55,332 nt of DNA from Schmidtea polychroa. Its lineage: Eukaryota. Positions within the stretch are counted from its first letter, which is position 1; each line of letters begins with the position of its first letter. Below are positions 5,207-39,434 of this stretch, one piece after another. Position numbers and translations under genes: made by a program. The notes under the pieces are model-generated. The model worked only from the letters and a program-made list of their open reading frames with translations. It was not told the DNA's origin and did not search any database. The stretch is from NCBI GenBank assembly GCA_044892525.1, contig CM097887.1, forward strand, positions 4,278,001 through 4,333,332, written 5' to 3'.

Positions 5207-5601
5207 AACGTTTTCTAAGCAACAGTGCCGATGTGTTCAACACTATTCTCAACGACATTGTGGTTTTCTGGCCACCTGGATGACCATTTACAAACTCTTT
5301 ACAAACATTTGCTGAGTTTGTAACTGTGATTTAGAAAATAAATATAAAAATTATATGTTCTTTTTTAATTTAATTTTTGGGGGTAAGATAACACGGAAGT
5401 ACCAAACTCAGTCTGCCGGATATTTAATGAATAGTATGCAAAATGGGAATTTCAATTAAAAATCTAATTAATAATGAATGTATTGATGAACGTGTCAGGC
5501 CATATGGAGAATTGTAAAATAATAATAAGATAAATTAAAACTCGTGTAAGTGAAAGATACCTGAAACATAATTATGCCTTTATGAATTATATTATTAAAG
5601 T

Positions 5602-6423
5602 TGTTGAGTTTTTATTTGTAAGTCGGTCCTTTCTCTGACTCCTCGTGTCCTTATTTTACCAAATCAATGAGAACTCAACACAGAATAACTTTATTCGCTT
5701 TTTATCACAATTACAATTTTTCACTATTTGCACCTTTCTCTCAATTTAAATTTGGTTCGCTAAGGTAAGAAACCAAAGGGGCAATTACCTTTTCTTCTAC
5801 GAGTCTAGCTTCTTTATAATTCACAAATTTCCTCTTTTGACTTGTCCTTGCTGGATTTTCTGTTTAGCTTTTTCCTTTTTCTCTTCGACCAAATGGCGGC
5901 TTGCTCATTTCTAAGCTCTCCTTTTATACTGTGTCTAAGAGGCCAATTATCTAGCAAAATGAAATTAATTGTTTCCCCGGACACCCTAAGTAAATTTTGA
6001 AAGGTTCGACAATTATTTTAATTTACTTACCCTGCAATTATAATTCGGATTATTATTACCTTATCTGGTGTCTCGGTTCTCACTGCGCATCGGGTTTTCT
6101 TCAGTGCTCGAGTTTCCCATTGGCTCGGGCTTTCCATTACAGATTAATTAATTTTAATTAATTTGTTTTTCTTTATTAACTTTTTCTATGATCACCCTAT
6201 TACATTTTTATTATGCTGTCTAACCTCGTCTAACAATTTGGCATTCATCCATACCCGATTCCCCCGTTCAATATTGATTTTTAATTTTCATTAAATTTTA
6301 ATTAATTTTGTACTTATATTGATTTAACCAATTTTTGTTCTGCTTTCTGGTACCATGTGAAATTTATTTTGATTTTGCTCTAACCCCAACATATCTCCCC
6401 TTTAATTTAGATTCGTCCTCGAA
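5602..6423 (-). mobile_element. 3' LTR (5602-6391, 790 bp) plus PPT and short internal stub of a related Ty3/Gypsy family
   Basis: TGTT...AACA termini. PPT AAAGGGGAGATA (6392-6403) matches the large element's PPT. TTCGAGGACGAA motif at 6412-6423. Shares the U5 block ctctgactcc.cgtgt.cc and gctcggg..ttcccatt repeats. Confidence 0.85.
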
Positions 6424-6508
6424 TCTATTCGATTTTTAAATAATTATTAAGATGGTAGAGTATTGATAATAATAATATTAATAATAATAATAGTAACAAT
6501 AACAATAA

Positions 6509-7103
6509 GTTAATAAGGAAAAACAAATTAATTATAAATAATTAATCTGTAATGGAAAGCCCGAGCCAATGGAAAGCTCGAGCCCATGGGAAACTCGAGC
6601 ACTGAAGAAAACCCGATGCGCAGTGAGAACCGAGACACCAGATAAGGTAATAATAATCCGAATTATAATTGCAGGGTAAGTAAATTAAAATAATTGTCAA
6701 ACCTTTCAAAATTTACTTAGGGTGCCCGGGAAAACAATTAATTTCATTCGGCTAGATAATTGGCCTCTTAGACACAGTATAAAAGGAGAGCTTAGAAATG
6801 AGCAAGCCGCCATTTGGTCGAAGAGAAAAAGGAAAAAGCTAAACAGAAAATCTAGCAAGGACAAGTCAAAAGAGGAAATTTGTGAATTATAAAGAAGCTA
6901 GACTCGTAGAAGAAAAGGTAATTGCCCTTGGGTTTCTTACCTTAGCGAACCAAATTTAAATTGAGAGAAAGGTGCAAATAGTGAAAAATTGTAATTGTGA
7001 TAAAAAGCGAATAAAGTTATTCTGTGTTGAGTTCTCATTGATTTGGTAAAATAAGGACACGAGGAGTCAGAGAAAGGACCGACTTACAAATAAAAACTCA
7101 ACA
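6509..7103 (+). mobile_element. 5'-truncated inverted copy of the same LTR
   Basis: Reverse complement of ~5602-6180; ends ...aaactcaaca at 7103 with the same flank (acttt/aaagt). Confidence 0.85.
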
Positions 7104-7301
7104 ACTTTAATAATATAATTCATAAAGGCATAATTATGTTTCAGGTATCTTTCACTTACACGAGTTTTAATTTATCTTATTATTATTTTACAATTCTCCA
7201 TATGGCCTGACACGTTCATCAATACATTCATTATTAATTAGATTTTTAATTGAAATTCCCATTTTGCATACTATTCATTAAATATCCGGCAGACTGAGTT
7301 T

Positions 7302-7668
7302 GGTACTTCCGTGTTATCTTACCCCCAAAAATTAAATTAAAAAAGAACACATATAATTTTTATATTTATTTTCTAAATCACAGTTACAAACTCAGCAAAT
7401 GTTTGTAAAGAGTTTGTAAATGGTCATCCAGGTGGCCAGAAAACCACAATGTCGTTGAGAATAGTGTTGAACACATCGGCACTGTTGCTTAGAAAACGTT
7501 TGCGCCACATAAACTCACATAATCACATAAATCACAGATAGCCTTAATAAATTCATGTTCAATAATGTTCAATAACGTCATCAATAATGAATTCTCTCAT
7601 TTTTTATATTGTTATTTTAATTGTATTTTATAATTTAATTTTTGGCGGTAAGATAACACGGAAGTACC
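7302..7668. mobile_element. MITE with GGTACTTCCGTGTTATCTTACC terminal inverted repeats
   Basis: TIR pair at 7302 and 7668; half of it is duplicated at 5207-5403. No TSD seen. Confidence 0.7.
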
Positions 7669-21330: not shown

Positions 21331-21953
21331 CCTCACCTATAACCGTTTGTTCTCATTGGTTGACAAGTCGATTTTTATATTTTTAAATGTAAATAATTGA
21401 TGATTACGCATTCCTATCCTAGATTGAGATGCGGAAAATATATCATTTAAGTTATAACAATCGAGAATAACATTAATCCGTTGAAAATAAATTTCTTTTA
21501 AATATTATTTATTTGTTTAAAATTTTAATATTTGAATAAATTTTATTTTTTAAGAAGTCGGTAAGATTTAAATTTTAATTTAATAAAAATATCTCGCTTA
21601 AAATAAATGTTGAAATTGCACAAATTAATCAAAATGAACCAAATTGTAATTAATTAAAATTGTGATGGAAAACCGGACAAATTATTGTAGGAAAGGGAGG
21701 AAATTTACTATGCAGATATTTGCAAAGATTTAACAAAAAAGGTTGGCTTATTAAAACAAATTTGCCGGGAAAAATATTTGGATTTGTTATATAATTATAT
21801 GAAATATTGTTACAGAATTTCTTGTCTGATTTAATTGCTACAACGGACATCTTTTGTTTTTCTTGTAAGCCTAGATCAGAATTTTTCCCAAGCTAAAATT
21901 CCTTCTTAAAATGGAGATTATAATAACAGTAGAGTTTAAAGAAACAAACCATT

Positions 21954-22944
21954 TGTTGGGTTTTATGATATCAAAATCAACCGTTGGTTACTCTGACTCC
22001 ACGTGTTCCAAAATCAATAAACAAAAACTCCCAACGTATATTTGTTTTATAACAATTCACAACTCAACAATTAATCACACTGTTGGTTAATCACAATTCT
22101 TACACAATTTCAAATCGAACTCCGCTCTGGAAGGTCTCGGCCTTGTACGATTTAAAAAATAGGTTTCACCTTTTGTTTGATTCCGCTCTCTGATCCGAAC
22201 TCTTTTAATATTCCTTTCTGACTCCTAAATTCCTCTTATAATTCCTTTTTCCTTTTTATTTTTATTCCTCGAACTCCTATCGTCTGTTTCTTCGTATCCC
22301 TACCTAAGGCTATCGCCGATTATGTGAATTTTGAGTTTTCTTATATACTCCCATAATCGTTGTAATTGCCCCATTTTTGACCTAATTGGTTTTGACTTCT
22401 TCAGCTATCATTCCCTAATTGACTATTTTTGTTGACCCTCTTCGTAATTCCCTGTCTTTTGTTTACCCTCGTTTATCCGATTGTTTGGATAATTGCCCTC
22501 TGAATTCCTCGTTTGTTTACCCTTCCAAATTGCCGTGCTCGGGTTTTCTTCATCGCTCGGGTTCTCCATTGGCTCGGGCTTCCCATTAGCTCGGGTTTCC
22601 CATTAGCCAATTAATTAATTAATTAATATTTTACGTTTTTCCACATTTGTCTGTTTTACGACCCTTTCTACACATTTTCTAACAATTTCTTGCTCACTGT
22701 CTTCTTCACCATCCCTTAATCTACCCCTCTCCCGTTTTCCAGCTTCAATTTCGATAACTTTTCACTTTATTCCACTTCCTCCGGTTTGCGCATTTTCCCA
22801 TTTCATGTCTGATTGTACCCTTTTATAGTTCTGTTTTTATCATATCTTTCTTTGCCATTGCTTCTCTGCTTGACCGCCATTCAATTTCGGCTTTCCTTTT
22901 AATCTGAACTATATAATTTAATAATTTATTTTCAAACCTCAACA
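21954..22944 (-). repeat. 3' LTR
   Basis: Direct repeat of 37665-38655, preceded on the minus strand by the PPT. Confidence 0.98.
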
Positions 22945-22957
22945 TATCTCCCCCTTT
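22945..22957 (-). promoter_or_regulatory. Polypurine tract
   Basis: AAAGGGGGAGATA directly abutting the TG of the 3' LTR. Confidence 0.93.
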
Positions 22958-23316
22958 AAAAAAAATTTCGTCCTCGAAATATGTGATGCTTATTCAATTT
23001 AAAATATATTATTATATTTTCTGAAAATTAGGTGACCTATTGACATACCGACAATTCAGTCCCATTCGAGTCTTGTTCATTTTATTAAAATTCAACATTT
23101 TTTTTTCTTATGTTTAAAAATCTGATTTTAATTTATTCGTGAATTTTCTCATTTAAATAGTTTTTTGAAATTTTCAATCAAGTGTTTCATAGCATTTTAT
23201 TAAAAATCTGATTTTACTTTATTCGTGAATTTTCTCATTTAAATAGTTTTTAAGTGTTTCATAGCATTTCATTTTCAAAGTTAATTATTTACTTTATTTA
23301 TATTTAATTTATTTAC

Positions 23317-23595
23317 GTTCAATAGTAAATTAAATTTCATCCAATTTCACGTAGTAAGTACTCATGACTCAACATACATGTTCCGCATATGCCACTTGAG
23401 AGTCAGAAAATTCCGTCTGTAGCCAACAAGTTATAGGTTTCCCAACTAGTTACCTTGTGAACATAAAAAAAAACAAATTCCTATAAGCGTAGTTGTATAA
23501 ACATGATTAAGTCGATCGATACAGTCATCATCGTAACGGCATACTTTATTGGAAATTAGTGATTTATCAAGAATATACTTTCCTAATTCTTCCAT
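23317..23595 (-). pseudogene. inx: Innexin N-terminal exon carried inside the retroelement, decayed
   Basis: MEELGKYILDKSLISNKVCRYDDDCIDRLNHVYTTTLIGICFF/MFTR*LVGKPITCWLQTEFSDSQVAYAEHVC*VMSTYYV matches the innexin DDDxxDRLN..YT..QxVGxPIxCW..Y..xCWV.xTY signature. One T-run frameshift, three stops, GTAAAT donor at 23316. Confidence 0.9.
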
Positions 23596-24242
23596 AGTTT
23601 AACGAAAGATTCAATATTAATTCCAGTGGATAGTGAGAATCACTCCATCGATTGATTGAAGCACTTTTCTTCAGAATGAAGAAATGCATCACAAGAAATA
23701 ACCAATAGGAATTAAGCCAGCCAATTCATTAGTCTGTTTGTAAGGCACACCCGCATTCATTAAATGAATAGATTAGGAAATTTTCAGTGTTCCTCTTTAT
23801 GGAAGATCGTTGATTCCGCAACTAAAGACAATTAGTTTCAAATTGATTTCATACTATAATTTAGTTGGCGATTTTACACGCTGTGTTTATAAATATAATA
23901 ATGTCAACAAGTTTGATTTATTTCCTTGTAAATAAACAATACAATTTTAAATTTAATATTAAATTGCAGTTTGGAGACGGCAAGATAATTTTATCCCTCA
24001 ATGTTTACCAGATCAATCATGTCTAAATTATATTTGCTCTCAATGTCGATTCTTGATATCAATGTCGATTCCGGGAATAATAATGTTCTGCCTCCCATGT
24101 TGGCAATTATAATCAATTGCCTCTTGAAATGGTAATTATTTGTTTGTTAATTTGTTAATCTTAATTTAGGTATAAATAGGCCTTGTATATAACTTAAATT
24201 CTCAAGATATAAAAATCCGTAATAATTCAGGACATTGAAACG

Positions 24243-24545
24243 GTGCTATATTTCTACAGTCAGATACCTGAGTTCTCCAGTGAAATATTACCGTTTGAGC
24301 AACTACACAATATTTTCAAAATGGCATTTCTATCTGCTGGAGATTTTCAGGAAACTTTAATTGACACATATGTTGGATTGCTAAAGGAACTATTTCAAAT
24401 ACTAAAGGAGAACGATTTAAATCTGCTTATTGGGTTCTTGTGGGATGTGTTAAAAAACTATGAACCAGCAATGGGGGCAGCAGCTTGCTTACTTAACAGT
24501 GTCTACGAATCGGTAAGACCTTTCTCGTATTCAGTCTACTTATAA
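24243..24545 (+). CDS. Antisense ORF or exon of unknown function in the element's 3' region
   Basis: ~95 open codons of helical, protein-like composition after a ttctacag acceptor, inside very AT-rich DNA. Confidence 0.4.
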   Translation: MLYFYSQIPEFSSEILPFEQLHNIFKMAFLSAGDFQETLIDTYVGLLKELFQILKENDLNLLIGFLWDVLKNYEPAMGAAACLLNSVYESVRPFSYSVYL

Positions 24546-27120
24546 TTATAATAATTAATATTAATATTATTTTCATTATTTTTTGTTTATTTATTTTTAC
24601 ATTATTTATGATTTTGATTTTTGATTGATTTTTCGTTTTTATCACTTATATCATTATCTTATTTTATTTATTATTTTTATTTTTTATATTAATTTTATTT
24701 TATTAATTATTATTATTATTATTTTTCTTATATCATAATTCATTCATCTTTATGTTATCTTGTTTATTTATCAATTATTTGCGCTTATATATTAATTAGA
24801 CCAATAAACAGTTTGTCTGTAACTAACAACTCCTGCAAATCATTTATTATCACTAAGTTTATTGTTTAACATAATATGGACAGATTTTATGACAGATTAA
24901 CTTAAAATATAAAATAATTTACATAATTAAAATAAGATTTTAAATATTTGTAGAAAAAGAATGATTTAATGACAATTTTAAAATTTAAATAAGTTTAATG
25001 TTCGCATTAAAACGATTAAATTTGTATATTGATTCTAATTATATATATAATCATTAGTCTTCATATTTATTATTTTTCTTAAAAAATAATTTAAATAAAG
25101 TATTTTACATTTTAAATGTAATAAATATAAGAAAATTCATGTAAGTACTGAAGAAGTTTCTAAAAATGTTTTCAATTAAGGAGTTATTAAACAAATTACG
25201 TTTTTAATAAGTTTTCCAGTAGGAGTATGCCAACTATTAACGTTTCCGACATAAAACAGCCTGAGAAGTGTTGCTAATTATTGTATTATTTAATTATTAC
25301 GAATTTATTTAATTTATAATTTATTTCGTTTCAGTTACATCCAAAAATGGAGGTTTACACAAAAGTTATTCAGCAAGTGTAGAACATTCAGATCAGAGTC
25401 AAAGTATATTAGAGGTTAATTTTATATTTTTAATATATTGTTGATTATTTTCAATTTAGTAAATTGAAATAATAATAATAATCAAATCGTCAGTCGCTTG
25501 CCCTCCACGTTGCTGTGAACCCAATATCGTTTGGACCAAATCGCATTTGATAAGAGTTTTTATGACAATGAATAAGAATTTAATTTATTTTATATAATTA
25601 ATTTATCTTTTCGTTTCATCTATAATACTTTGTATGTAATTTCAGGTTTTTAATTTATTGAATATTTATAAAAGATTTTTTTTTTAAAAAAAATTTATTA
25701 GCATTTCTTCGAAATAAAAGTAAAAAAAAGGTATTTATTGTTTCATTATCTAATTCAGATTATTTTTTTTTAAATGCAATTTAATTTCCTTCGATTTTGC
25801 CGAATAACTTTTTCGCTTTTTGGTGAAAACTTTATTATAACTTAACAGAATTTTGCACATAACATTTTAATAGTTTTGATTGTGTGGAGTTTTGATCTTA
25901 TTCAATGTCCTATTGTGAGTATTTTTTATTATAGATATTTTGTGAATCGTGTTTGTGTGCGATTATTCTTTCTTTCTATTCTCTCAGTAATAATTTCTAT
26001 CCACCTACATTATAAACCGTTATTTAACGACATGGCTCTAATTTAATGTCAATTTTTGTCAATGCCACACACACTTTTATTTAATTTATACTATTAAAGA
26101 TTTAATTTATTGTGATTCAGGTTTTTATCTAATGCGTTACGGTGATATTTTTGTATATATTTTTTTTCACATACAATATTTTTAAAAGAAAATTTTTACA
26201 AAAATAAAAATCTTAGTTGAAATACAAAGTTTGGAAGTTTTGTAAAAAAAATTTTGATAATTTATGTATATGAAAAATCTGTTATATTTTGAAACGATAA
26301 ATTTCATCGCAAGTGTGCTTGATTTTTTTATTATAGGAATTGTGTTAGTATATGTTTCTGAAACAAAAAAAAATATTTTTTTTTTCACACAGTTTAGTTG
26401 GTGGAATGCTTGAAGTATTAATTTATTAGATTTTTAAAGATTATAGGAAATGCAAAATTTTGAAACAGGTATGATGAAAGAAATCCCCGCCCATATCCAA
26501 TCTCAGCTTTTATGATTGTATGTCCGGATATCGACGGTCGATGATGAGTACAGCGACAGATTTTATGTTGGTTTTTTATTTGCCAGTTATTTATAAATAT
26601 AAATTTTCCTCACAGCTTTAGCCTTTTCACTTATGCTGTTTTTTACTTTACTTTTGTTTTATGTCGGAATTAATTAAATTTTTTTTTTTTTTTTTTTTGC
26701 TTAATTTAATTTTATTCTTTAATTTAGGACTCACTAGTAAAATTTGATCCCCTCATGTGGTTAGTTTCGTTTCTATATAATTAAAATTACTGTAGGATTT
26801 ACTTAGGCTTCCTGTACCCGCGCCACCTCGCTCGGGTCTAAAACGTACCTTTGCCTGTGTGGACTTGTCCCACAGGTTCAAGAGGTTCGAAAAAAGACCT
26901 CCTCGGGGTGTAGTGGACGACTCCCACATCGAGAGTTTTGTCCTGCTAGAGGACTAACTTATCAATAAATTTTGTTTATTGACTATTTTGTTCTATTCAT
27001 TTATTCTCTTTTAACATTTAGTTTTATTAATGTAAATGTTATTATCGTTTAGCCTTTCTCTTTTACTACTTCGAGGACGAAAAGTGAGGTTTTAAATTGT
27101 AAATTTTATTAATCATTAAA

Positions 27121-27366
27121 TTATTCTAACTCATCCATCTCTCTTTCCTCATCGGTCGGGCATTCATTTCCCTGTATCTGCATTCTTAGCAACACGACTT
27201 CCGCTTCGTATTGGAACAGGAGAATTTCCATCCTTTCCAGCTTTCTTTTGCAAATCATATCCTCTAGTTCCAAGTCGTCAATTTTCCTCTCCATTGCTTT
27301 CATTTTTCTTCTCATTTCTTTCATTGAGTTTCGACACTCTTTGATTGACTCTTCCTCTTGGGCTTC
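27121..27366 (-). CDS. Spliced accessory exon, charged coiled-coil peptide (81 aa)
   Basis: Acceptor tatttaacttcag at 27367 followed in frame by EAQEEESIKECRNSMKEMRRKMKAMERKIDDLE...; first exon not identified. Confidence 0.55.
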   Translation of the reverse strand, partial: EAQEEESIKECRNSMKEMRRKMKAMERKIDDLELEDMICKRKLERMEILLFQYEAEVVLLRMQIQGNECPTDEEREMDELE

Positions 27367-27536
27367 CTGAAGTTAAATATAATTAAAGTTTTCTTAAACA
27401 CTCTTTATCACGCAAGGCCAAGCACACCATAGCGAAGTCCGATCAACCAAAATAACTAATTTATGTTATTATTAATCTATAATCATACTAGTTTTATAAG
27501 ATTTATTTACACGCATGCAATTTTTATAATGTAATT

Positions 27537-28670
27537 TTATACAGTGGTTTCGATCACACTGAAAGGCTCGAGTCGTAAATCAGTTATAATATGCTGTCTA
27601 TTTTTGCACAGAATGATTGTTATTATTATGAACACCAGAGATAATATGAGAAATGCTGTCAGGATGAGGTATATCAAATATTCACATATAATTAGAGCTT
27701 GATCAGTCTCAATTTGAGTCCGCTTATTTATTACACGATTGTTAACTTGGTATTGTTTTGTAGTAATTGGACCTGCTGTGGTTACATCAGATTTCAGGCC
27801 TGGTACCCTTCTCGTTTCCACCAGAACGGTTTTCCATCGATATGGCTCGAATATCCGTTGTTGATATTTGATTTTTATCAGGTAATCATATTCTAAATTA
27901 GAACTAATTAATGAAAAATAGCTTTTACCGGCATCCAACAAAACGATAATTTTTTTTTCATTACTGATAATCACTCTTTCGTCATCTGGGGATTTCGATA
28001 AATTGTTATTGACCCGTTTTGAACTCCAAGAATCACACGATTCGATACATTCTTAAGGGGAATTATTTGATTCTCTGTTTGAAACAATGTCCATTTATTT
28101 TTCATTATTGTGCCATTATCATACATCGCATTTTCGTAGTAATTAACCGTTATTGTATAATTTGAGTTCATTTTGAGATTGTAATACCGAGTGTAAGCCT
28201 TTCGCATGTTTAGAATATCCACAAAATTTTGAAATATGACCTGCACCTTTACTCTTTCTACGGCTACCCAATACACATCTATACCATTCATTATCGGCTC
28301 AATTTCCACGGTATTCCATAATTCGTTAGTTTGTATTATAATTCGAATTTGACTATTAAACTTTTCAAGCGAATCTGATTCATTCTGCTTTATGATCCAT
28401 GGATACTTGAAGTTAACTTTTAATTCTCGTGCCGCATACGTATTTCTGTCATAATTCAAAATAATGAAAGGTGTGAACGGGTCTAACACGTTGCTAATTT
28501 CTATTTGCTCCATTATTTCGCACTGATAAGTCCAAACAATATTTGTAAACGTGGAATAAATATCGATCTTGTCCCATAAGGGTATTTTTGTTATCGCATA
28601 TGGTAAATCCATTCTCATCCCTTTTACCCTTGTCATCATCATTAGCACGACTGTTGTGAATAGCACTCTG
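27537..28670 (-). CDS. Second type I membrane (env-position) protein fused to the integrase C-terminus
   Basis: Hydrophobic signal VLFTTVVLMMM, ectodomain with sequons NES, NYT, NGT, NVS and NGS, one -1 shift near 27990, ~30-aa TM LIICEYLIYLILTAFLILSLVFIIITIILC and a 22-aa tail. Confidence 0.7.
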
Positions 28671-28789
28671 TTAAGATAACTGATTGGAACTGGATTTTTG
28701 GTGAATTTTTGTTGAATTTTTGTATCCGCCTTCTCTTCATTTCGTTTCGATCGTAATGGATATCTTTCTTCGTCATTTTCCGGGACCAA

Positions 28790-30190
28790 TTTACAACGAT
28801 TGGCATGAACTATTATAGGATTTGCCTTTTTACTCCTAAACGGTAATAACTTCAAATTTGTTTCGGTTGTATCACACACTTTATATGGCCCTTTAAATGG
28901 TCTCTGTAACTTTGGAGACATACCTTTGAGTGGTTCTGGTCTGTTAAGATACACTAAATCTCCAATTTTTATTCCATGAGGTCGTGTTTTCTTATCGTAG
29001 GCTTCTTTGTACTTCTCTTGATTATGTTTTATTGTTAATCCGGCTTTTGTCCAAACCGACTGTACCCTCTCTTGCATTATCGCATTATACTCGGGTACTT
29101 CCATATATTGAGTAACGGGTGATTGGAAGTTTAGATCTATCGGCATGTTGTTTCGTCTTAAGTACATTAAATAAAACGGTGTCTCTCCCGTACTTGGGTT
29201 GACAGCATTTCTATATGCAAACAAACAAGGCTTTATGTAGTCGTCCCAATCTCTCTGTTTGCTATTTACATACGACGAAATCATATTTATCAATGTGCCA
29301 TTAAATCTCTCGACTAAACCATCGGTTTGTGGATGGTAGGGCGAAGTATTCAACTTCCAGATTCCGAATAACTCGGTGATTGATTTAAATAATTCGCTTT
29401 GGAAATTTTTACCTTGATCAGTTAATAACTTTTTTGGGGTACCATATCGGAAAATAATGTTCTCTACAAATATTTTTGCTACTGTATCAGCCTTTTGATT
29501 TGGTATGGCGTAAGCTTCCGGCCATCTTGTCAAATAATCACAAAATACTACGATGCATTTATTTCCTTTTATTGTTTCAGGTAACGGCCCAACAATGTCC
29601 ATTGCAGTCATCTCCATTGGTGCGGTTGGAACAGACATTGGTTTTAAAGGTACTTTAATTTTATTGCCTGTATTTCTTCGAGTTATACATATCTTACAAT
29701 TTTTGCACCAATCTTTTACGTCTTTTTCCATCATTGGCCAATAGTACTTCATTTTCAGTCTTGATAAGGTTTTTCTAGCGGACAAGTGTCCTCCTAGGGC
29801 TCCATCATGATATTGCATCAACAGTGAATCTCTCTGTTTTTCAGGGATCATAATCAATATCTCGTCGTTTTTCACGCATTTTAATATTCCCTCGTGAATT
29901 ATGTATTTATGATTTTCACTCATTACCTGTTTTAAATCTTTCTCCTTTCTGACCGTGATTGCTTGTTCAAAGAAATGTTTAAGTCGGTTATCCTTTTTCT
30001 GTTCGTTTTGTAATTCAGTCACATTATTAACGGCTTTGATTGCTGCAAATATTGTGCCTTCCACTTTTTCTGTACCAGTATCCTCTCCACTAAGCCCATT
30101 GGGAATTCTTGACATTGCATCGGCATTTGCATTCGCTTTTCCTGCTCTATATTTTATTTCGAAATCATACTCTTGGGAGCAATTGACCAT
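28790..30190 (-). CDS. End of RNase H plus integrase (HHCC, DDE core, GPY/F)
   Basis: QEYDFEIKYRAGKANANADAMSR, HDGALGGH..YYWP..CKNC..C, MDIVGPLP, TDQGKNF, YHPQTDGLVERFN, FKGPYKV. Confidence 0.97.
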
Positions 30191-32160
30191 CTGATTAATT
30201 TACTAGTTGAATCTCTATGCTTCATTAACCACTGAAGGGGGTTGTGATCAGTATATACAACGAATTTTCGTCCCAGCAAATATTGTCTAAACGTAGCAAT
30301 GCCGTAAACTAGCGCTAATGTCTCTTTTTCGATTGTCGAATAATTTTTTTCATGTGACCTTAAAGATCTGCTTGCATACGCTATTACGTGATCCTTTTCA
30401 CCGTCCACTTGCTGACCTAACACCGCTCCCAATGCCACGTTACTGGCATCGGTCATTAATAGGAAAGATTTCGTAAAATCTGGGCATCGCAAAATAGGTG
30501 CCATTACTAATTTCTGCTTTAACGTGTCAAAAGCTGATTGTTGGGTTTTGCTCCATGTAAACTTATTATTTTTCTTTAACAGCGAATTTAATGGCTGAGC
30601 GATATGCGAGAAATTCTTTATAAACTTTCTATAATAGCTTGCTAATCCCAGAAATTGCCTCACCTCGCCCGCGTTCTTTGGAATTGGATACGCTTCCACC
30701 TTTTTAATATTGTCCGGATTAGTTTGCAGACCTCTTCTTGATATAATATGACCAACATATATTACTTCAGATTTTCCCCATTCACATTTTGATGGTTTTA
30801 TTTTCAATTTTGCGCTTTTAAGTCGCTTAAATACTGTTTCCACATCATCGAGATGCTCGTCAAAGCTATTCGAAAAAATAATTATATCATCAATATAAAC
30901 TAGCGCATGTCTGATGCCTCTCAACACAAAATTCATACCTCTTTGGAATGTAGCTGGGGCTCCCGTTAAGCCAAACGGCAAGACATTGAACTCATATAAG
31001 CCTTTACCATCGGAAAATGCCGTTTTCCTTCTATCTTCTTTTTTTACTTTAAATTGATTATAGCCTTTGTTCAAATCGATGACCGTAAAATACTGGGCTT
31101 CTCCCATCTGATCAAACATTTCTTGAGGTACGGGAATTGGATAAGTATCCTTTCTTGTTACTTGATTCAGTTTTCTATAATCAACACAAAACCTTAAATC
31201 TCCGTCCTTTTTCTTGAATATTACAATAGACGAAGAAAATGGTGAGGAGCTGTCTCTGATTATCCCAAACTCTTTCATCGCCCTGATTTGTCGATCACTC
31301 TCGGTTTGATGGATGTAAGGGATTCTGTACGGTTTTATTTTAACCGGAGTTTCATCCAGCAACGGGATTTCGTGCTCTATTATATTTGTTAGCCCCAAGT
31401 CGTATTCATGTTTCGCAAAAATATCTCGATATCTCCTCAACAATTTTGTAAATTCCTGTTTTTGTTTTTCGGTCAGGTCCTTGTTCACAACTTCGGGTTC
31501 CTTATAAATTTTTACGTTTCTGGGAATTTTCTTTTCTGTTTCTACCGACATGTGAGACAGTTTTCCCAATCTTGTCTGTGGCTTTAATCGTATTGATTTA
31601 TCACCATAATTCGCTATTCGCACTGGTAGCAATTGGTTTTCCACTTTCACGATTTCATCGCACATTGGGGTCTCGTATTTTTCAATTAACGTTTGACTGG
31701 GTTCGAATATGAATTCATCATTATCGACACTAGTCGCGCTAGCATAATATACCACTTCTGTTTGAGGTGGGATAGTTAATGATTGGTTTAGAAACACTTC
31801 TCCTGAATTACGAATGACTTCACCTATTTTCCCCACTATCAGGTTTCCAGTTTTGAAATCAAGTGAGATTCCGTCTAATTGTTCTAATACATCCATTCCA
31901 ATCAAGCACAATACAGGACTTTTCTCCATAATTTGCACATTATGTCTAATTCTTCTATCACCGATTATCAGTTCAACTTCGATTTCTCCGATTACTGGCA
32001 ACACATTTCTGGATAACGATCTGATTACACTATCGGATGGTTGGATTCGTTTTTTCTCTTCCATCGACAGTATTTCTTCTGATATAATTGTATGACTCGA
32101 TCCAGAATCCACCACGGCTTCAACTCTGTTTTTGTTTATTTGAATTACTATTCGTGGTTG
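30154..32160 (-). CDS. pol: Aspartic protease, reverse transcriptase and RNase H
   Basis: VVDSGSS; PVKIKPYR, RFCVDYRKLN, IDLNKGYNQ, PFGLTGAPATFQ, YIDD; TDASNVALGAVL, EKETLA, TDHNPL. A 1-nt deletion at ~30178 (WSIA/LQEYDF). Confidence 0.98.
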   Translation of the reverse strand, partial: QPRIVIQINKNRVEAVVDSGSSHTIISEEILSMEEKKRIQPSDSVIRSLSRNVLPVIGEIEVELIIGDRRIRHNVQIMEKSPVLCLIGMDVLEQLDGISLDFKTGNLIVGKIGEVIRNSGEVFLNQSLTIPPQTEVVYYASATSVDNDEFIFEPSQTLIEKYETPMCDEIVKVENQLLPVRIANYGDKSIRLKPQTRLGKLSHMSVETEKKIPRNVKIYKEPEVVNKDLTEKQKQEFTKLLRRYRDIFAKHEYDLGLTNIIEHEIPLLDETPVKIKPYRIPYIHQTESDRQIRAMKEFGIIRDSSSPFSSSIVIFKKKDGDLRFCVDYRKLNQVTRKDTYPIPVPQEMFDQMGEAQYFTVIDLNKGYNQFKVKKEDRRKTAFSDGKGLYEFNVLPFGLTGAPATFQRGMNFVLRGIRHALVYIDDIIIFSNSFDEHLDDVETVFKRLKSAKLKIKPSKCEWGKSEVIYVGHIISRRGLQTNPDNIKKVEAYPIPKNAGEVRQFLGLASYYRKFIKNFSHIAQPLNSLLKKNNKFTWSKTQQSAFDTLKQKLVMAPILRCPDFTKSFLLMTDASNVALGAVLGQQVDGEKDHVIAYASRSLRSHEKNYSTIEKETLALVYGIATFRQYLLGRKFVVYTDHNPLQWLMKHRDSTSKLIRWSIAPKSMISK

Positions 32161-32584
32161 TTTACCAATTTTCGCTAACGCCATTAGTACGTAATTACCA
32201 GGTAAGCCTAACCTATTTCTTCTTTCAATTTCTGCGCTCGTTGGATCGATTCTCTCACACTGTAGTGCAATGTTCTCAACTGGCTTCATTTCTATCAATT
32301 TATCTACCGGATATGCTGGTAGTGGTTGTATAAATGATTTTGGTATGCATAATCTAGTGAATGTATCCTGGTTGCCATCATTAGAAAATGATTCTTTTAT
32401 TAGTTGATAATTTTTCCATGTATCGGCTTGATTCCGTTCCTCCTCGTATGACGGTGCCGATTCCCCGATTTTCTCGTTGTCACTTTTGTCCTCATTAGAA
32501 GTAGTGGTTACATCAATATAACTTACCTTTCTCTTTTTCGTTAATCGTGCTTTCAACGTTTCCAACTCTCGATATTGATGATGT

Positions 32585-34439
32585 GTTATAAAAAATCTGG
32601 CTAACAATGGTATACATCCAATAACCAACTTCCACGACAGACCTGTAATAGTGTATAATCTGTGTGTTGATAACACCTGCGAAACTATTACTTTAATCAT
32701 GATTCCGATCACATATATTCCGATTAATCCCGCGCAGGCTTGCCCGATAAACATAAATTTTCCCCAAATCTTTTTCATCGTATTATACGTCGCCTTTTTG
32801 TAATGATCCACTGTTAATAAATAGTCGTAATTCACTTTTCCAGTTCCACTCGGGAGAATAGTGTCTACTATTTCCGTTATTACCCTTTCCTTTTTCGAGG
32901 GGAATAATAAGTTTCTGCGTGCTGCTTCAATATCATCACTTGAATACATTCCACTTTGAGTCATGCTGTCTAGCGATGTAAAGTTAATTAGATATTCTAA
33001 TTTTGTCAACTCCAATTTTTCTGGGACTTTCACCCACCTATGATCAGGTAGTGCAATCCATGATTCGGGCGTCAGGCGGTATAGTGGAGCCAATAATCTG
33101 TTGCACTGCAACACTCTCGGTTTCGCGTCCTCCTCCAATAAAATTCGTGTCACCGGCTCCATGAATCGTAGCTTCCCATTAACATTCACAGGCAGTTCAT
33201 TTGTGCATTGATTGTATTTCATCAATTTAATAGGTACTGCCTTGCATTTATAACTATATAAGGCTTCACCAAGCATTCGAGCGAATACTCCATTCTCCGA
33301 AATCAACATTGGAGCAACTAGATTCGGGTTCGTGATAGCCATCGCCATTCTGTTTCGCAGGATTTCTTTGTTTAACTTGCAATCATTTAGTATGATTTCC
33401 CTGTACACACTTTCAATTGTATCTTGGCTAAAATGAAATAAATAGTCAATCTTATTATTGAAATAGTTCGTTAGTTTAATTTCCTCTGCGTACAATTTTG
33501 TTTGAGCTTCTTCGACAACTTTCTTGGATAAATAAATTCCTTTATAATTGGTCTCATAAACAGTTTGTCCACACTTCGTATTTACGCTCTTCCTTAAGAA
33601 TCTCATCCCATCGTTTGGGGACATTGCCATTAAAACCGTTGGCGTTTTCTTCAAGCGTATCGGTGTGATTCTAAGTGTCATATTCATGACTGAGTTTAGC
33701 ACTGTGCTTTCTGGTCTCTCTTGGATCTGCTCTCCCGTTATCTCTTTAAAAGGCATTGATTTTAAATGTGCTAAATTGCATTTTTTGGTATCAACTTCAT
33801 ATACCAGAATTGACTCACCTGTGTTGCAGCTTTCTCCCTCATGTTACAAAATGGATGGGTTTGCAATTTTCCCGTATCGTCATCGAATGATCCATCAAAA
33901 TACCTTAATTCGGTTTCATATTCTTCTATCACGACGGTTTTATCAATGACTGTTTGTCCTACTTTATACGCTTCACCCTCGCAATCGCCATTTGCCTTGA
34001 TTATCCCCTTAACTGCTATAGTTTCACGAATTTTATAGTTTAATTTAGCCTTCAAATTAATTTCTGAATTTATTTTCAGCTCTCCTGTTTGGAACGCTGC
34101 CAAACAGTTTTCCCGTGTCACCTCTATTACTCTTGGAATTGAGTGCATTTTGATTAATGACGAATGGCTCCATTTGCCACAGTAGAATATAAACGTAGTT
34201 CTTTTTGCTGTGCATTCTCTCACTTTCACTCGTCTAAATCCCGCTTCTTGGTATACGTGGTATGTCACTTCATTTGCCCATTTTAAGTTCCTCGGATATG
34301 CGTCTGGACACTCTGCTACATCTACTAGCGAATATACTTTTCCCATTTCTGTCTGGGAGCAATCGTACGCTACCAAGGACGTTGTGGTATTAATAACTCC
34401 TAAAATCACCAAAATAGACATGGTTAGCCATGGAAACAT
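32585..34439 (-). CDS. Chuvirus-like (class III, gB-related) fusion glycoprotein embedded in the polyprotein
   Basis: Signal-like segment, then AYDC..SLVDVAEC, FYCGKWSH, CLAAFQTG, CGQTVYET, YFNNKIDY..CKL, GEALY..KC, CTNELPV..FMEPVTRIL, SGMYS..LLFP, and TM region WGKFMFIG..GLIGIY. Split by a -1 shift between ~33830 and 33775. Confidence 0.88.
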
Positions 34440-34489
34440 TATTTTCCCTCTTTTCGGCTCATAATTTCTTCCAGTTGTCGCAGTCTCCG

Positions 34490-34865
34490 ACTTTTGCACC
34501 AAGTTTTCCCATCCTCCATTACGCATAATCCAACCCGTCACATATGTATTCGCCACTTCGGTGGCTTTTACTATCTATTTTTCCGATTTATCGCATTCCA
34601 AGCATCCATATACGCCAATTTCTAGAACAATATAAGCAAGGACTGTTAGTACCACGTCTCTGTTCAAACCGTTCCTGATTAATCTCTTGACTACTGTTTC
34701 ATCGCAAAATACCCTCTCTATGGTATTATCCTTTAGTACTACTGGAAGCCGACTTTTTAATACCGCTGCAAGCTGATGTATGAGTTCATCGTCACAACTA
34801 TTTCCTTCTTCCAGTGCATATAATTCTGTTACTAACCCTTTCAAAATTGATTCTGTTTGAGACAT
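34490..34865 (-). CDS. Bcl-2-like domain spanning an in-frame TAG
   Basis: BH1-like ETVVKRLIRNGLNRDVVLTVLAY and BH2 WIMRNGGWENLV are in the same frame, separated by TAG 34575-34577; a hydrophobic anchor follows ~18 aa after BH2. Confidence 0.68.
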
Positions 34866-36347
34866 ATTATTCAGATCCGTTTTTTCAACCACATTGGAAT
34901 CTATTCGATCGTTCTCTTCGTTTCCACCCATTAATTCGATTTTACACCGCTTTCGACCATTCAATTTACTTTCCGCTTCTACAAAATTCGACTCACTTTT
35001 CACTCTTTCACTCACTAGTAGCTCGTCGGTTATATGGTTAGTTTCCTGATTTACTGAATCATTTTCGTCCACCTCCTCACTCGTAATTTCGTCTTGCTCG
35101 TCATTTATGCCTTCATCTTTTGGGTCATGCTCTTCTAACTCGTAGTCGTTAGGTTCTTCAGCCAATTCCTTTTTAATTTCCATGTCATCATCCTTCGTAT
35201 CCTTTGTAATTCTCGGCCAGTGGGTTATTATACTCTCGGATACCTCCCTCACCTGTTTCTTGGCTTCGATATTATTTATATAATTCGGACTGCACCCACA
35301 ATTGATTAAGTATTCATCGTCATCTAACTCAACTCCCTTGAAAGTTAGTATAACAATTCCATCATTACCCAACATTTCCACCGCTTTCCGTCGTACTTTC
35401 GACACCTTCATGCTCCAGTGTTCTTGTAAGTACTCCACTTTCCCATTCATATTTAAGGCTATTACCAATGATCTGGGTATCTCATCTGACTCTCGGTGCT
35501 CACGGCCCATTTTTCGTACTATTTCTTTCAATTTCGCCTGATAGTTCGTCGTTTTATGAATATACGGTAAAATACTCTCGAATAATTGTTCCTTCGCTTT
35601 TTGATCCATCTCCGAACTTATCATTCGTTCCGGACAATTACTAATTTCGTCTTCATCTCCAATATACAGACTATCCCGTAAATCCTGTAATTTTTCCTCC
35701 CATCCTTTAAAGTCTGAATTTGAATGATTAATTACATTGAATATCTTTACCTCATTTTTATATCCAGGAATCAGCCCACAATCGACCAAATATTCTCCAT
35801 CCGCCAATTGACCCATCGACCGTTTTTTGAAATTTATTTGCACTTCATTTGCTTTATATTTCGACATAATGAGCTCCCTCAAATCCTTTATTTGCCCGCT
35901 AGGTTTAATCGTAAATTGAAAGTTTCTGCCATTTCCGTCTGTAGTTTCTACGAATATGTCGGTCAAGCTCTCTGTGGATCTCAGTGCTTTTCCCAATGTC
36001 TTTATTAGTTTTGCAATTTCATCGTCTTGGTATTTATTGTAAACTTTGACACACATGTTTAAAATAATTTTCAATTTTCTTTGGCTAAGTTGGATTTGAG
36101 TTAGTTCGGTAATCCACTCTTTCAATCTCGGAAGGTCTGTTTTCATTCCGGTATACCATCTTTCTATTTTCTTTATCAACAGAACAGCCTTTTCATTTGA
36201 TAGATCATTTTTTGCTTTATCACTAAGATTTCCGCCCGCATCGGCCTCTTTTTCGTACACCATACACGAATCTGCTTCCTCATCTGATTCGAACTTTGAC
36301 ATAAGCTTGTTTAATTTCTGTCTCATTTCCCGAAATTCATTTTCCAT
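34575..36347 (-). CDS. Accessory polyprotein segment: helical N-terminus, two ubiquitin-like domains, acidic linker, start of Bcl-2-like domain
   Basis: In frame with gag. UBL1 IFVETTDG..IKPSGQIKDLR..QLADGEYLVDCGL; UBL2 ..LTFKGVELDDDEYLINCG. Confidence 0.75.
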   Translation of the reverse strand: MENEFREMRQKLNKLMSKFESDEEADSCMVYEKEADAGGNLSDKAKNDLSNEKAVLLIKKIERWYTGMKTDLPRLKEWITELTQIQLSQRKLKIILNMCVKVYNKYQDDEIAKLIKTLGKALRSTESLTDIFVETTDGNGRNFQFTIKPSGQIKDLRELIMSKYKANEVQINFKKRSMGQLADGEYLVDCGLIPGYKNEVKIFNVINHSNSDFKGWEEKLQDLRDSLYIGDEDEISNCPERMISSEMDQKAKEQLFESILPYIHKTTNYQAKLKEIVRKMGREHRESDEIPRSLVIALNMNGKVEYLQEHWSMKVSKVRRKAVEMLGNDGIVILTFKGVELDDDEYLINCGCSPNYINNIEAKKQVREVSESIITHWPRITKDTKDDDMEIKKELAEEPNDYELEEHDPKDEGINDEQDEITSEEVDENDSVNQETNHITDELLVSERVKSESNFVEAESKLNGRKRCKIELMGGNEENDRIDSNVVEKTDLNNMSQTESILKGLVTELYALEEGNSCDDELIHQLAAVLKSRLPVVLKDNTIERVFCDETVVKRLIRNGLNRDVVLTVLAYIVLEIGVYGCLECDKSEK

Positions 36348-36362
36348 TTTCTCTTTAAACTC

Positions 36363-37478
36363 CTACTTTTGAGCATATGCAACATTAGTATTTGCTGATT
36401 CATCTTGAAATCTAATAGATTTCCTCAATATTGGTCGGCTAAATCTTTCTGAGTTTCGGGGGCATGATCGAGCCATGTGGCCATAACCTTTGCATGAATG
36501 ACATTGAATTTGTCCATTAGTGTTCACTTTATCTCGTTGGGGCGACGGGGATCTTGATGGTGATGGGGTACCTGAAAAACAATTCCTGCTTATGTGGCCC
36601 ATTTTCCCACATCTATAGCATTTCAAGTCATTAATAATTGGCTTACTTTCTACAAACTTTCTTCTGGGGCTGGGGTCTCTTCCATATTTAAACCAGCATT
36701 GATTTGAATAGTGTCCCACTTTCTTGCAGTGATCGCATACTATGCTGTTAGATCTCGCAGCCACCTGACTCCCAAACGCTGCTTTATTAATTTCGACTTT
36801 ATTACTTGGTCTTGGCGAACTGATTGTTTGGGTTGGTTTCTTTGATACCCATTGTTCTCGAACTGGAGTTACCGACCTTTCTCTTTTATCGGCATTTGCA
36901 GCAAATACTTCGGATTTTCTGGTACTTTTCAAGTTCAATTCAATTTTCATGGCTTTTTTCACAAGTTCATCAAAATTCGAGAAATCCACGTAGCATAGGG
37001 CTTTTTTAATTTCAGGAAGGGCTCCATTTATAAATTGATCTTGAAGCAGTTCTCTGACTTGTTTTACCATCTCAACTTGTTCAGGCTTTGCTTCGAAGGC
37101 TTTGTCTGCTAAAGTCGTTAAATGGTATGCAAATTCACTTACCGATTCATTTGGATTTTGTACTCTGGCATAAAATTTTTGGCGCATTATTCTTTTTATA
37201 TCGCCTCCCACCAATTTCATTGCCATCGCATCCTTGAGTTTGGCCCAATCATTTCCAATTGTCTTTTTATCCACTTGCTGCCAAGCTTCTCTTGCGGCTC
37301 CTTTTAAATAGAGTGGGAATCTTTGTACCATTATGGCCTGTGACCACCCATAGGCCGAAGCGTACATATAATAATCGCCCATGAAATCGGCAAAATCAAC
37401 CGGGTCTCCTCCATACTGATTCACCGGTAATTTTTGACAACTGGCAAAATCTATCATCTCAGCGTTCTCTCTGGCCAT
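36363..37478 (-). CDS. gag: Gag with three CCHC zinc knuckles
   Basis: Retrotransposon-gag features (LKGAAREAW, R.QNPNESVSEF, QFINGA) and CDHCKKVGHYSNQC, CYRCGKMGHISRNC, CHSCKGYGHMARSC. First ATG at 37478; frame open from 37514. Confidence 0.95.
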   Translation of the reverse strand: MARENAEMIDFASCQKLPVNQYGGDPVDFADFMGDYYMYASAYGWSQAIMVQRFPLYLKGAAREAWQQVDKKTIGNDWAKLKDAMAMKLVGGDIKRIMRQKFYARVQNPNESVSEFAYHLTTLADKAFEAKPEQVEMVKQVRELLQDQFINGALPEIKKALCYVDFSNFDELVKKAMKIELNLKSTRKSEVFAANADKRERSVTPVREQWVSKKPTQTISSPRPSNKVEINKAAFGSQVAARSNSIVCDHCKKVGHYSNQCWFKYGRDPSPRRKFVESKPIINDLKCYRCGKMGHISRNCFSGTPSPSRSPSPQRDKVNTNGQIQCHSCKGYGHMARSCPRNSERFSRPILRKSIRFQDESANTNVAYAQK

Positions 37479-37639
37479 CTTTACTTTTCGGTTCCTCAAA
37501 TTGTATTCACTCACGGCTAAATATTAAAATTAATAATCAATAATTACTACCTCTTCCAATTTCCAATTATTTTCAATTTTCTTATTACTTTAATTTTTTT
37601 CACCTCTTTCACCCTTCAATATTCGCCCACCAACGTTTA

Positions 37640-37657
37640 ATCACATCGGGCTCACCA
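37640..37657 (-). promoter_or_regulatory. Primer binding site, tRNA-Trp-like
   Basis: TGGTGAGCCCGATGTGAT(T) versus the vertebrate tRNA-Trp PBS TGGTGACCCCGACGTGAT(T), recalled from memory; 7 nt from the 5' LTR. Confidence 0.75.
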
Positions 37658-37664
37658 AAATATA

Positions 37665-38655
37665 TGTTGGGTTTTATGATATCAAAATCAACCGTTGGTT
37701 ACTCTGACTCCACGTGTTCCAAAATCAATAAACAAAAACTCCCAACGTATATTTGTTTTATAACAATTCACAACTCAACAATTAATCACACTGTTGGTTA
37801 ATCACAATTCTTACACAATTTCAAATCGAACTCCGCTCTGGAAGGTCTCGGCCTTGTACGATTTAAAAAATAGGTTTCACCTTTTGTTTGATTCCGCTCT
37901 CTGATCCGAACTCTTTTAATATTCCTTTCTGACTCCTAAATTCCTCTTATAATTCCTTTTTCCTTTTTATTTTTATTCCTCGAACTCCTATCGTCTGTTT
38001 CTTCGTATCCATACCTAAGGCTATCGCCGATTATGTGAATTTTGAGTTTTCTTATATACTCCCATAATCGTTGTAATTGCCCCATTTTTGACCTAATTGG
38101 TTTTGACTTCTTCAGCTATCATTCCCTAATTGACTATTTTTGTTGACCCTCTTCGTAATTCCCTGTCTTTTGTTTACCCTCGTTTATCCGATTGTTTGGA
38201 TAATTGCCCTCTGAATTCCTCGTTTGTTTACCCTTCCAAATTGCCGTGCTCGGGTTTTCTTCATCGCTCGGGTTCTCCATTGGCTCGGGCTTCCCATTAG
38301 CTCGGGTTTCCCATTAGCCAATTAATTAATTAATTAATATTTTACGTTTTTCCACATTTGTCTGTTTTACGACCCTTTCTACACATTTTCTAACAATTTC
38401 TTGCTCACTGTCTTCTTCACCATCCCTTAATCTACCCCTCTCCGGTTTTCCAGCTTCAATTTCGATAACTTTTCACTTTATTCCACTTCCTCCGGTTTGC
38501 GCATTTTCCCATTTCATGTCTGATTGTACCCTTTTATAGTTCTGTTTTTATCATATCTTTCTTTGCCATTGCTTCTCTGCTTGACCGCCATTCAATTTCG
38601 GCTTTCCTTTTAATCTGAACTATATAATTTAATAATTTATTTTCAAACCTCAACA
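37665..38655 (-). repeat. 5' LTR
   Basis: Direct repeat of 21954-22944, followed by the PBS and gag. Confidence 0.98.
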
Positions 38656-39434
38656 CATTTATTAAGTAATATAAATTAATGTAATCATGAAAATCTGTAA
38701 ATAAATTTGTTGAGAATTACACATTATCCATTTTTTAGTGCCGGCTTTAGACAAATTTGAAATAATGCAGCTCTAGGCGGGTAATCAGCTTGGGTAATCT
38801 GTTACCACGGGAGTGATCGCAGTGTCGGCCTCAGACAATTTTGTGCTATATAAAAAGTGATATTGGTAGCACGAGGAACAACAAATAATTTTCATAACAT
38901 AAAAAATATTTTTAAATTTAAATTTTTCATAATTTTGCCGCCCTTTAAAATAATGCCACCCAGGCAGCCGCCTATGTCGCCTATGTTTCCATTTCCTCTC
39001 GCTGTGGAGTTTTATGTGAAGATTACATTCTGAAATTAAACTTATAAAGTATATTACGTAGAATTTATTATTACTGATTTAGCTAAAAATTTTATAATTA
39101 TTTATTTATTTATTTAATTAGTGCTTCATGATGACAACTGATTTGTCGCAATATAAATACAAAAATATATTTTCACAAATAATGTTTCTGCCGATTTTGG
39201 CGTGTTTTTTGTATCGCGTCTGTGTGCGCGGTATGATTAGACCGATTCTTGTTAATGTGCGCACACAGACGCGAGAAGTACGTTTTTATGTTTTATATTG
39301 AAGTTAATTGTAATTGTTGGTTTTTAGGATTGATTTGAATTCTAGGAATTGATTGGTTTTTCTGGAAGTAAAGTGAATTTTTGTTTGAACGGGTTATTTA
39401 TGTGAATATTTTGAATTTTCGGATTTAGTTAAAT

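Follow-up and report, generated by a model that had tools for sequence, protein, structure and literature searches.

A predicted fibronectin type III membrane protein behind the integrase of a fusogen-bearing Ty3/gypsy element in Schmidtea polychroa

The window, a stretch of 55,332 nucleotides from Schmidtea polychroa, contains a 16.7-kb Ty3/gypsy LTR element (21,954–38,655, minus strand) that encodes a second type I membrane protein behind its integrase, unrelated to the class III fusogen that stands ahead of its Pol. The original prediction had proposed such a protein from this copy, and it was borne out: the module, hereafter X, is conserved and ends in a PDZ-type tail. Based on its predicted fold and its tail, we see even chances that X is a host-derived attachment or adhesion protein anchored to PDZ scaffolds. 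A wider proposal, which we consider possible but doubtful, is that two proteins of different origin make up the entry apparatus of the element, a mononegavirus-like class III fusogen before Pol and a captured fibronectin type III (FN3) attachment protein behind it, with two internal ER signals within one polyprotein. The PDZ tail would aim this apparatus at cell junctions, and Pol-less satellites would carry the structural module only.

Layout of the element and of module X

The element has the order gag–ORF2–class III fusogen–PR/RT/RH/IN–X, with Pfam families recognised for gag, fusogen, PR, RT, RNase H and integrase, and the features of the element down to the coiled-coil-like ORF behind X lie on the minus strand. 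Its LTRs (5' at 37,665–38,655, 3' at 21,954–22,944; 991 bp, TG...CA) are about 99.4% identical to each other. Target-site duplication, primer-binding site and polypurine tract are all present: CATT stands at 21,950–21,953 and at 38,656–38,659, a TGG-type primer-binding site lies behind the 5' LTR, and the polypurine tract immediately precedes the 3' LTR. The gag region with its CCHC knuckles (36,366–37,523) matches PF03732 (E 6e-9) and PF00098 (E 2e-12), and the ORF2 region between gag and fusogen (34,443–36,362) gave ubiquitin at E 0.11 only and no Bcl-2 Pfam match. The fusion glycoprotein (32,600–34,442; PF24664, E 1e-62 and 1e-29) is of the Monjiviricetes type and has, by hydropathy, an internal signal peptide and a transmembrane helix; in the window copy its frame is interrupted. 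Pfam places PR, RT, RNase H and integrase next, at 28,790–32,163, the GPY motif falling at 28,883–28,891.

Two short features of the polyprotein may be recorded here. A helical domain just ahead of the fusogen signal (34,500–34,800), without a Pfam match, contains GWIMRNGGWE, which by eye we take to be BH2-like. The motifs YNLRNR before gag (37,490–37,510) and RYPLRSK at the integrase end (28,742–28,765) presumably resemble the foamy-virus Gag chromatin-binding motif.

The hydrophobic signal, the sequon-bearing ectodomain with few cysteines, the transmembrane helix and the ETTV tail that the original prediction had placed behind GPY and RYPLRSKR are all present on the minus strand. In the basic linker RYPLRSKR (28,742–28,765) YPLRSK is conserved and the last R is variable. 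The predicted internal signal peptide of X occupies about 28,619–28,681, with small residues at -3/-1 in all subfamilies by eye, and an earlier boundary at 28,670 falls inside this stretch. The three predicted domains discussed below are followed by a variable Thr/Ser-rich stalk (27,690–27,809; 18–30% identity among subfamilies), a transmembrane helix of 21 aa (27,606–27,668; Kyte-Doolittle 3.15) and a predicted cytoplasmic tail of 22 aa with its stop codon (27,537–27,605), whose final ETTV, a class I PDZ-binding pattern, is encoded at 27,540–27,551. Furin cleavage at RSKR was considered and rejected: other subfamilies read RSKQ, RSKK or RSKP, and the site precedes the signal and is predicted to face the cytosol.

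X of the window copy holds five sequons (NES, NYT, NGT, NVS and NGS) and one cysteine in its folded part. In a single sequence, a count of five does not exceed what chance would give (shuffle mean 2.9, p ~0.15). Three sequon positions are shared by seven to eight of the eight subfamilies: an NGT/S site is kept in eight, an NYT-type site in seven, and a further site is found in all eight with a changing middle residue (NES, NET, NMS, NVS, NNT, NTT). The persistence of these sites suggests that the domain is luminal and glycosylated.

The X frame of the window copy shifts near 27,995, inside domain 3. In other copies the two ORFs do join: among 18 near-full-length matches at 99–100% identity, a tally that includes locus L004, X is open from the signal to E[T/S]TV in 12, 11 of which are also in frame with the integrase GPY, and it is broken in the remaining six, the window copy among them. 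Natural whole frames of 3,329, 3,346 and 3,334 aa and of 3,419 and 3,437 aa indicate that a single polyprotein extends from gag through ORF2, fusogen and Pol to X. All 30 bins are covered by contigs from a run presumed to be RNA, one of them spanning 27,978–29,118, a coverage that does not by itself show transcription.

Other features lie behind X or elsewhere in the window. A small coiled-coil-like ORF (27,121–27,372), without a Pfam family and preceded by an acceptor-like TTCAG, is conserved in subfamilies A–D at 45–62% aa identity. Subfamilies E, F and H have behind X a separate ORF of about 490 aa (L102:2106-3563, L097:1991-3478, L131:3922-5460) with what we take by eye to be DEDDh-exonuclease-like motifs; in E and F it has no Pfam match. 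Positions 24,231–24,513 of the window match the central part of a contig from run X8 (2,998 nt) that overhangs the match at either end, recur in copy L062, and are likely a captured host exon in the 3' region of the element, antisense to it. At 5,207–7,500 lies a 2.3-kb element with inverted arms of about 960 bp (98%) that includes LTR-like sequence of the same family, and long ORFs at 27–2,750 and 51,372–55,276 (minus strand) are probably further transposon remains.

Predicted fold and distant relatives of X

The original prediction recognised no family in X, a statement that is superseded by the predicted model, in which X consists of three tandem FN3 domains. A first model built on 27 close rows was poor (pLDDT 55) and already put domains 2–3 on fibronectin (Z 11.6). 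Addition of seven of the eight remote matches described below, P0006 being left out as low-complexity, gave an AlphaFold2 model with a pLDDT of 86.2 and a pTM of 0.79 that shows three beta-sandwiches. The proposed check by AlphaFold and Foldseek was fruitful, with a best E of 2e-9 to fibronectin FN10-12 and 383 matches at E<=0.001. Whole-chain TM-scores against FN3 proteins are low in Foldseek (0.2–0.3), which likely reflects the angles between domains.

Taken singly, each X domain superposes on FN3-type domains in VIA-align, with rmsd 2.5–3.6 over 73–85 residues; the top Z is 9.4 (CD45) and most values are 7–9, a common range for this tool. Predicted domain 1 (28,325–28,582, minus strand, as for the other two) matches 5n48_B (Z 7.7, rmsd 3.6, 85 aligned) and 7y8i_A (Z 7.5, rmsd 2.8, 78 aligned), and predicted domain 2 (28,049–28,321) matches 7jgu_A (Z 7.8, rmsd 2.5, 73 aligned). 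The FN3-like domain 3 (27,810–28,048) is covered by the match of 6mfa_A over D2–D3 (Z 11.6, rmsd 3.4, 155 aligned). Viral structures matched by X are FN3-type as well, and no profile of a class I, II or III fusogen was matched; FN3 accounts for all three domains in fold lists that FN3 matches dominate. Distant X homologues also carry patterns such as ISNLEEDEEYYIKI, which we take to be the FN3 E–F strand signature. Profile searches were less responsive: the Pfam fn3 profile matches 0 of 27 and 0 of 9 X sequences, and a PDB profile search gave no matches with alignment A3 and three weak ones with A4 (E 0.3–1.1). Our results are consistent with a predicted ectodomain of three FN3 domains.

At the sequence level, X matches no Pfam family, and a search with one X copy found no match among 1,928 candidates. 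The first ESM Atlas matches (0.81; for P0001, 0.90) served as leads only. A search of 1.8 billion proteins returned eight remote X matches. In one of these metagenome proteins, P0009, an integrase (59% identity) is continued by X (23%), and another, P0004, has the same linker, suggesting that the fusion of integrase and X predates the eight subfamilies. A host donor gene was sought in the species' own genome with P0001 and P0002, and only element copies were recovered (102 and 148 scored places, among which 21 less familiar loci were checked). As there is neither a Pfam fn3 match nor a donor gene from these searches, the host origin of X is something that we infer. In a search for metagenome loci of P0001, none of 234 pattern matches was confirmed.

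We found no description of X in the literature searched, to which Grohme 2018, Repbase, figures and subscription papers did not belong, nor did word searches find it in the portions covered of PMC6431247, PMC11410931, PMC8532177 and the supplements of PMC13524379. The element itself is a compact member of a published kind.

Conservation, selection and natural deletions

X is found in eight subfamilies, from A (that of the window) to H, and in one partial C/D relative; C and F are abundant, with more than 100 scored matches each. Its identity to subfamily A is about 35–67%, compared with 69–90% for the fusogen, and it evolves much faster than the latter. The check proposed at the outset, conservation with purifying selection among copies, came out positive. 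By pairwise codon counts, the dN/dS of X is 0.18–0.39, mostly about 0.2, wherever dS is finite (9 of 11 pairs), compared with 0.03–0.22 for the integrase end; dS is near saturation for most pairs. The bootstrap upper bound of pN/pS for X is below 1 in all 11 pairs. Within subfamilies, variants shared between X copies have a pN/pS of 0.12–0.34, the value for subfamily A resting on a weak test (eight variants only, with an integrase control of 1.04). Private variants, at 0.41–0.94, are nearer neutral, as is expected from decay after insertion.

The best-kept parts of X are the folded domains, and signal, stalk and tail are variable. Trees of integrase and X (eight rows) have the clades A+B and E+F in common; C+D is supported by the X tree only, and the two trees disagree, with weak support, on the position of H. 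These comparisons show that X was inherited vertically together with the integrase.

The tail behaves differently at its very end. Class I PDZ-type endings of the form ETxV/L occur in seven of the eight subfamilies: ETTV (A), ETRL (C), ETRV (D), ETWV (E), ETFV (F), ETLV (G), and both ETFV and ETWV in H. The background of E[ST]x[VLI] is 0.0006 per position, to be read with the relatedness of the subfamilies in mind, as the endings are not independent draws. When A, C, H1, H2 and the E/F/G group are compared, only 0–3 of the 16 residues ahead of the motif agree; the four terminal residues are clearly retained in a tail that otherwise drifts. Among the distant metagenome homologues the pattern is present in three of the five that have a C-terminus, as STLV (P0001, P0009) and VTQV (P0002), and P0003 (SVM) and P0008 (HVM) are without it. 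Subfamily B lacks the pattern as well, and yet young open copies of 3,346 aa exist there.

Natural deletions bear on the relation between X, fusogen and Pol. Of 68 listed fusogen matches, 41 have X at 5.0 kb, seven at 2.1 kb and one at 19 kb, and 19 have no X listed, although all four that were fetched from these 19 do carry X, one of them truncated; counts of Pol-deleted copies likewise apply to the matches listed. Six short subfamily C copies, chosen by short spacing or frame length, all have one common in-frame junction just before the X signal, with RT, RH and IN gone. One Pol-deleted C copy retains gag and ORF2 and has LTRs 99.8% identical, and so it has likely moved recently in trans. 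A different in-frame deletion is common to 6 of 13 loci in subfamily E. These two independent Pol-deleted lineages retain gag, fusogen, PR and X in frame, which ties X to the structural module, although the retention may reflect the mere need for an uninterrupted frame. Lineage-specific variants in their X (three silent and two new; five and one) are too few for a selection test. Splicing was rejected as the origin of the deletions, both junctions lying at short shared sequence that by eye is not GT-AG.

A third, older lineage (L067, L068 and L150, 87–92% alike; three of six loci examined) has lost the fusogen body and Pol. In L067 the fusogen signal leads into X in one frame, now with stops; X is without its own signal and domain 2, and the transmembrane helix and ETTV are kept. 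L067 is left with exactly one signal, which would preserve the orientation of X. This lineage shows that X can persist without a fusogen in cis and argues against an obligate partnership between the two, although here too the retention may reflect no more than the need for an open frame.

Possible role of X and comparison with known systems

To place X in the polyprotein, we propose a topology in which Gag–ORF2 would be cytosolic, the first signal would put the fusogen outside and its transmembrane helix would return the chain to a cytosolic Pol, after which the second signal would put the FN3 rod outside and a second helix would leave the tail inside. A second hydrophobic stretch follows the fusogen helix (Kyte-Doolittle 1.4–1.6) and could be a second pass, in which case the topology would change. 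X would likely be freed from the polyprotein by signal peptidase. Because the fusogen tail runs into Pol, X would have the only free cytosol-facing C-terminus. A free C-terminus of the form S/T-X-hydrophobic is the class I PDZ consensus, and in the sections of PMC4810129 consulted such a tail localises HTLV-1 Env with DLG1 at virological synapses and the motif of rabies G serves cell survival.

Based on this, the tail of X may bind junction or polarity PDZ scaffolds (of the Dlg/Scribble/MAGI type) in the manner of HTLV-1 Env, and the FN3 rod may bind a surface or matrix ligand on the next cell. X would site budding and transfer where cells touch and bring particles or producer cells up to their targets, and the class III protein would then fuse the membranes. 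Both proteins would be made in equimolar amounts in one membrane, and mutual binding would not be required. The lack of the PDZ pattern in subfamily B and in P0003 and P0008 counts against a PDZ-anchored adhesion protein. FN3 domains serve many roles, and this diversity, with the low whole-chain TM-scores, counts against adhesion as well.

An alternative that we find unlikely, though deserving of some weight, is that X acts in the producing cell as a host-modulating decoy dispensable for entry, its captured receptor-like ectodomain and PDZ tail soaking up a ligand, blocking superinfection or diverting PDZ proteins of survival or polarity, akin to BCL2-like cargo. Cytokine receptors and receptor phosphatases do figure among its fold matches (CD45, Z 9.4; IL-22R1, 8.5; IFNAR1, 8.3), but the WSXWS motif and the conserved N-terminal disulfides of class I cytokine receptors are absent by eye from alignments A3 and A4. 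The three loci without fusogen or Pol that retain a shortened X, its helix and an ETTV-type tail would suit such a role, as would the cell-survival use of the rabies G motif (PMC4810129, in part) and the apoptosis-related cargo described for Burro in the text covered of PMC6431247. Against it, the other cargo of the clade (exonuclease-like, coiled-coil) lies in separate ORFs that vary with the subfamily, in contrast to X, a constant part of the structural polyprotein.

We give a small chance to a two-component entry machine, the first of the two alternatives in the original prediction: X would bind the receptor and trigger fusion for the class III protein, much as herpesvirus gD/gH do for gB. 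Co-synthesis from one frame at equimolar levels fits this, as do the spacing of X at 5.0 or 2.1 kb in 48 of the 68 listed fusogen matches, its presence in the four fetched from the rest, and the retention of both proteins in two independent Pol deletions. Rhabdovirus-like relatives of PF24664 fusogens act alone, however, which speaks against a partner for this Monjiviricetes-type fusogen. The gD and gH/gL folds are absent among the listed X matches (absence from a list being a weak argument), one lineage retains X without the fusogen, and X diverges much faster than its supposed partner. In support of a partner, the Discussion of PMC13524379, in the part covered, calls entry by gB-type errantiviruses unknown since herpes gB needs partners.

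We consider it very improbable that X is a neutral passenger or, following the other alternative of the original prediction, an earlier env now decayed to a relic. X does sit at the env position of gag-pol-env elements without a sequence family match, but it is under purifying selection with dN/dS well below 1, keeps signal, sequons, helix and tail intact across eight subfamilies, and has a predicted FN3 fold rather than that of a class I, II or III fusogen.

If the preferred reading, attachment by X and fusion by the class III protein, were true, the structural polyprotein of a retroelement would have acquired an adhesion module of the cell surface. The wider proposal of an entry apparatus made of two proteins would, if true, amount to a minimal counterpart of herpesvirus gD plus gB and offer a testable way of spreading between planarian cells. 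X is a concrete candidate attachment factor in a very abundant, young clade. RNAi is feasible in this host group and transposon derepression has been seen (PMC8532177, in the part covered).

Among published elements, gag-env-pol in one frame is known from Burro (PMC6431247) and from Platyhelminthes GAG-ENV-POL errantiviruses (PMC13524379), both sources being used in part. Smed_errantivirus_1/2 and the other GAG-ENV-POL errantiviruses of HSV/gB type (Chary and Hayashi, PMC13524379) resemble our element in their Ty3/gypsy pol, their many intact copies and their class III env between gag and pol, and the window fusogen closely resembles, by eye, the Smed_errantivirus_2 row of the supplement. A second membrane protein is not mentioned in the portions covered, and 'fibronectin' has no match in the supplements. 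Burro/GYPSM1 (Arkhipova and Yushenova, PMC6431247) is alike in its one huge ORF, in its dUTPase-like domain between PR and RT and in the in-frame position of env ahead of PR; of the Ubl-like and BCL2-like motifs reported for Burro, the latter stands before env, where the putative BH2-like stretch lies here. Burro is larger, at more than 30 kb with an ORF1 of 4,873 aa, and has BIR, ankyrin and MATH motifs; the window element measures 16.7 kb with about 3,330 aa. None of the BIR, ankyrin and MATH Pfam families occurs in eight element proteins, and 'fibronectin' has no match in the text covered of the Burro paper.

Host type I proteins with FN3 domains (fibronectin repeats, CD45/CD148, neogenin/DCC, cytokine receptors, FNDC4/5) share with X the tandem FN3 arrangement, stalk, single transmembrane helix and short tail. 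X differs from them in its 8–16% identity with no orthologue identified, in being without a signalling domain and in being encoded as part of the polyprotein of a retroelement. Like X, HTLV-1 Env and rabies G are membrane proteins with an S/T-X-hydrophobic C-terminus, but there, as far as the sections used of PMC4810129 go, the motif is on the fusogen itself, whereas here it is on the second protein and the fusogen tail continues into Pol. Finally, Atlas virus, a nematode belpaovirus (PMC9094657, in part), is alike in its single Gag-Pol-Env polyprotein and in having two envelope glycoproteins, GN-GC. Both derive from one phlebovirus-like env behind pol, GC being a class II fusogen; in the window element, by contrast, Pol lies between two membrane proteins that are unrelated to each other, the latter of them a predicted FN3 rod.
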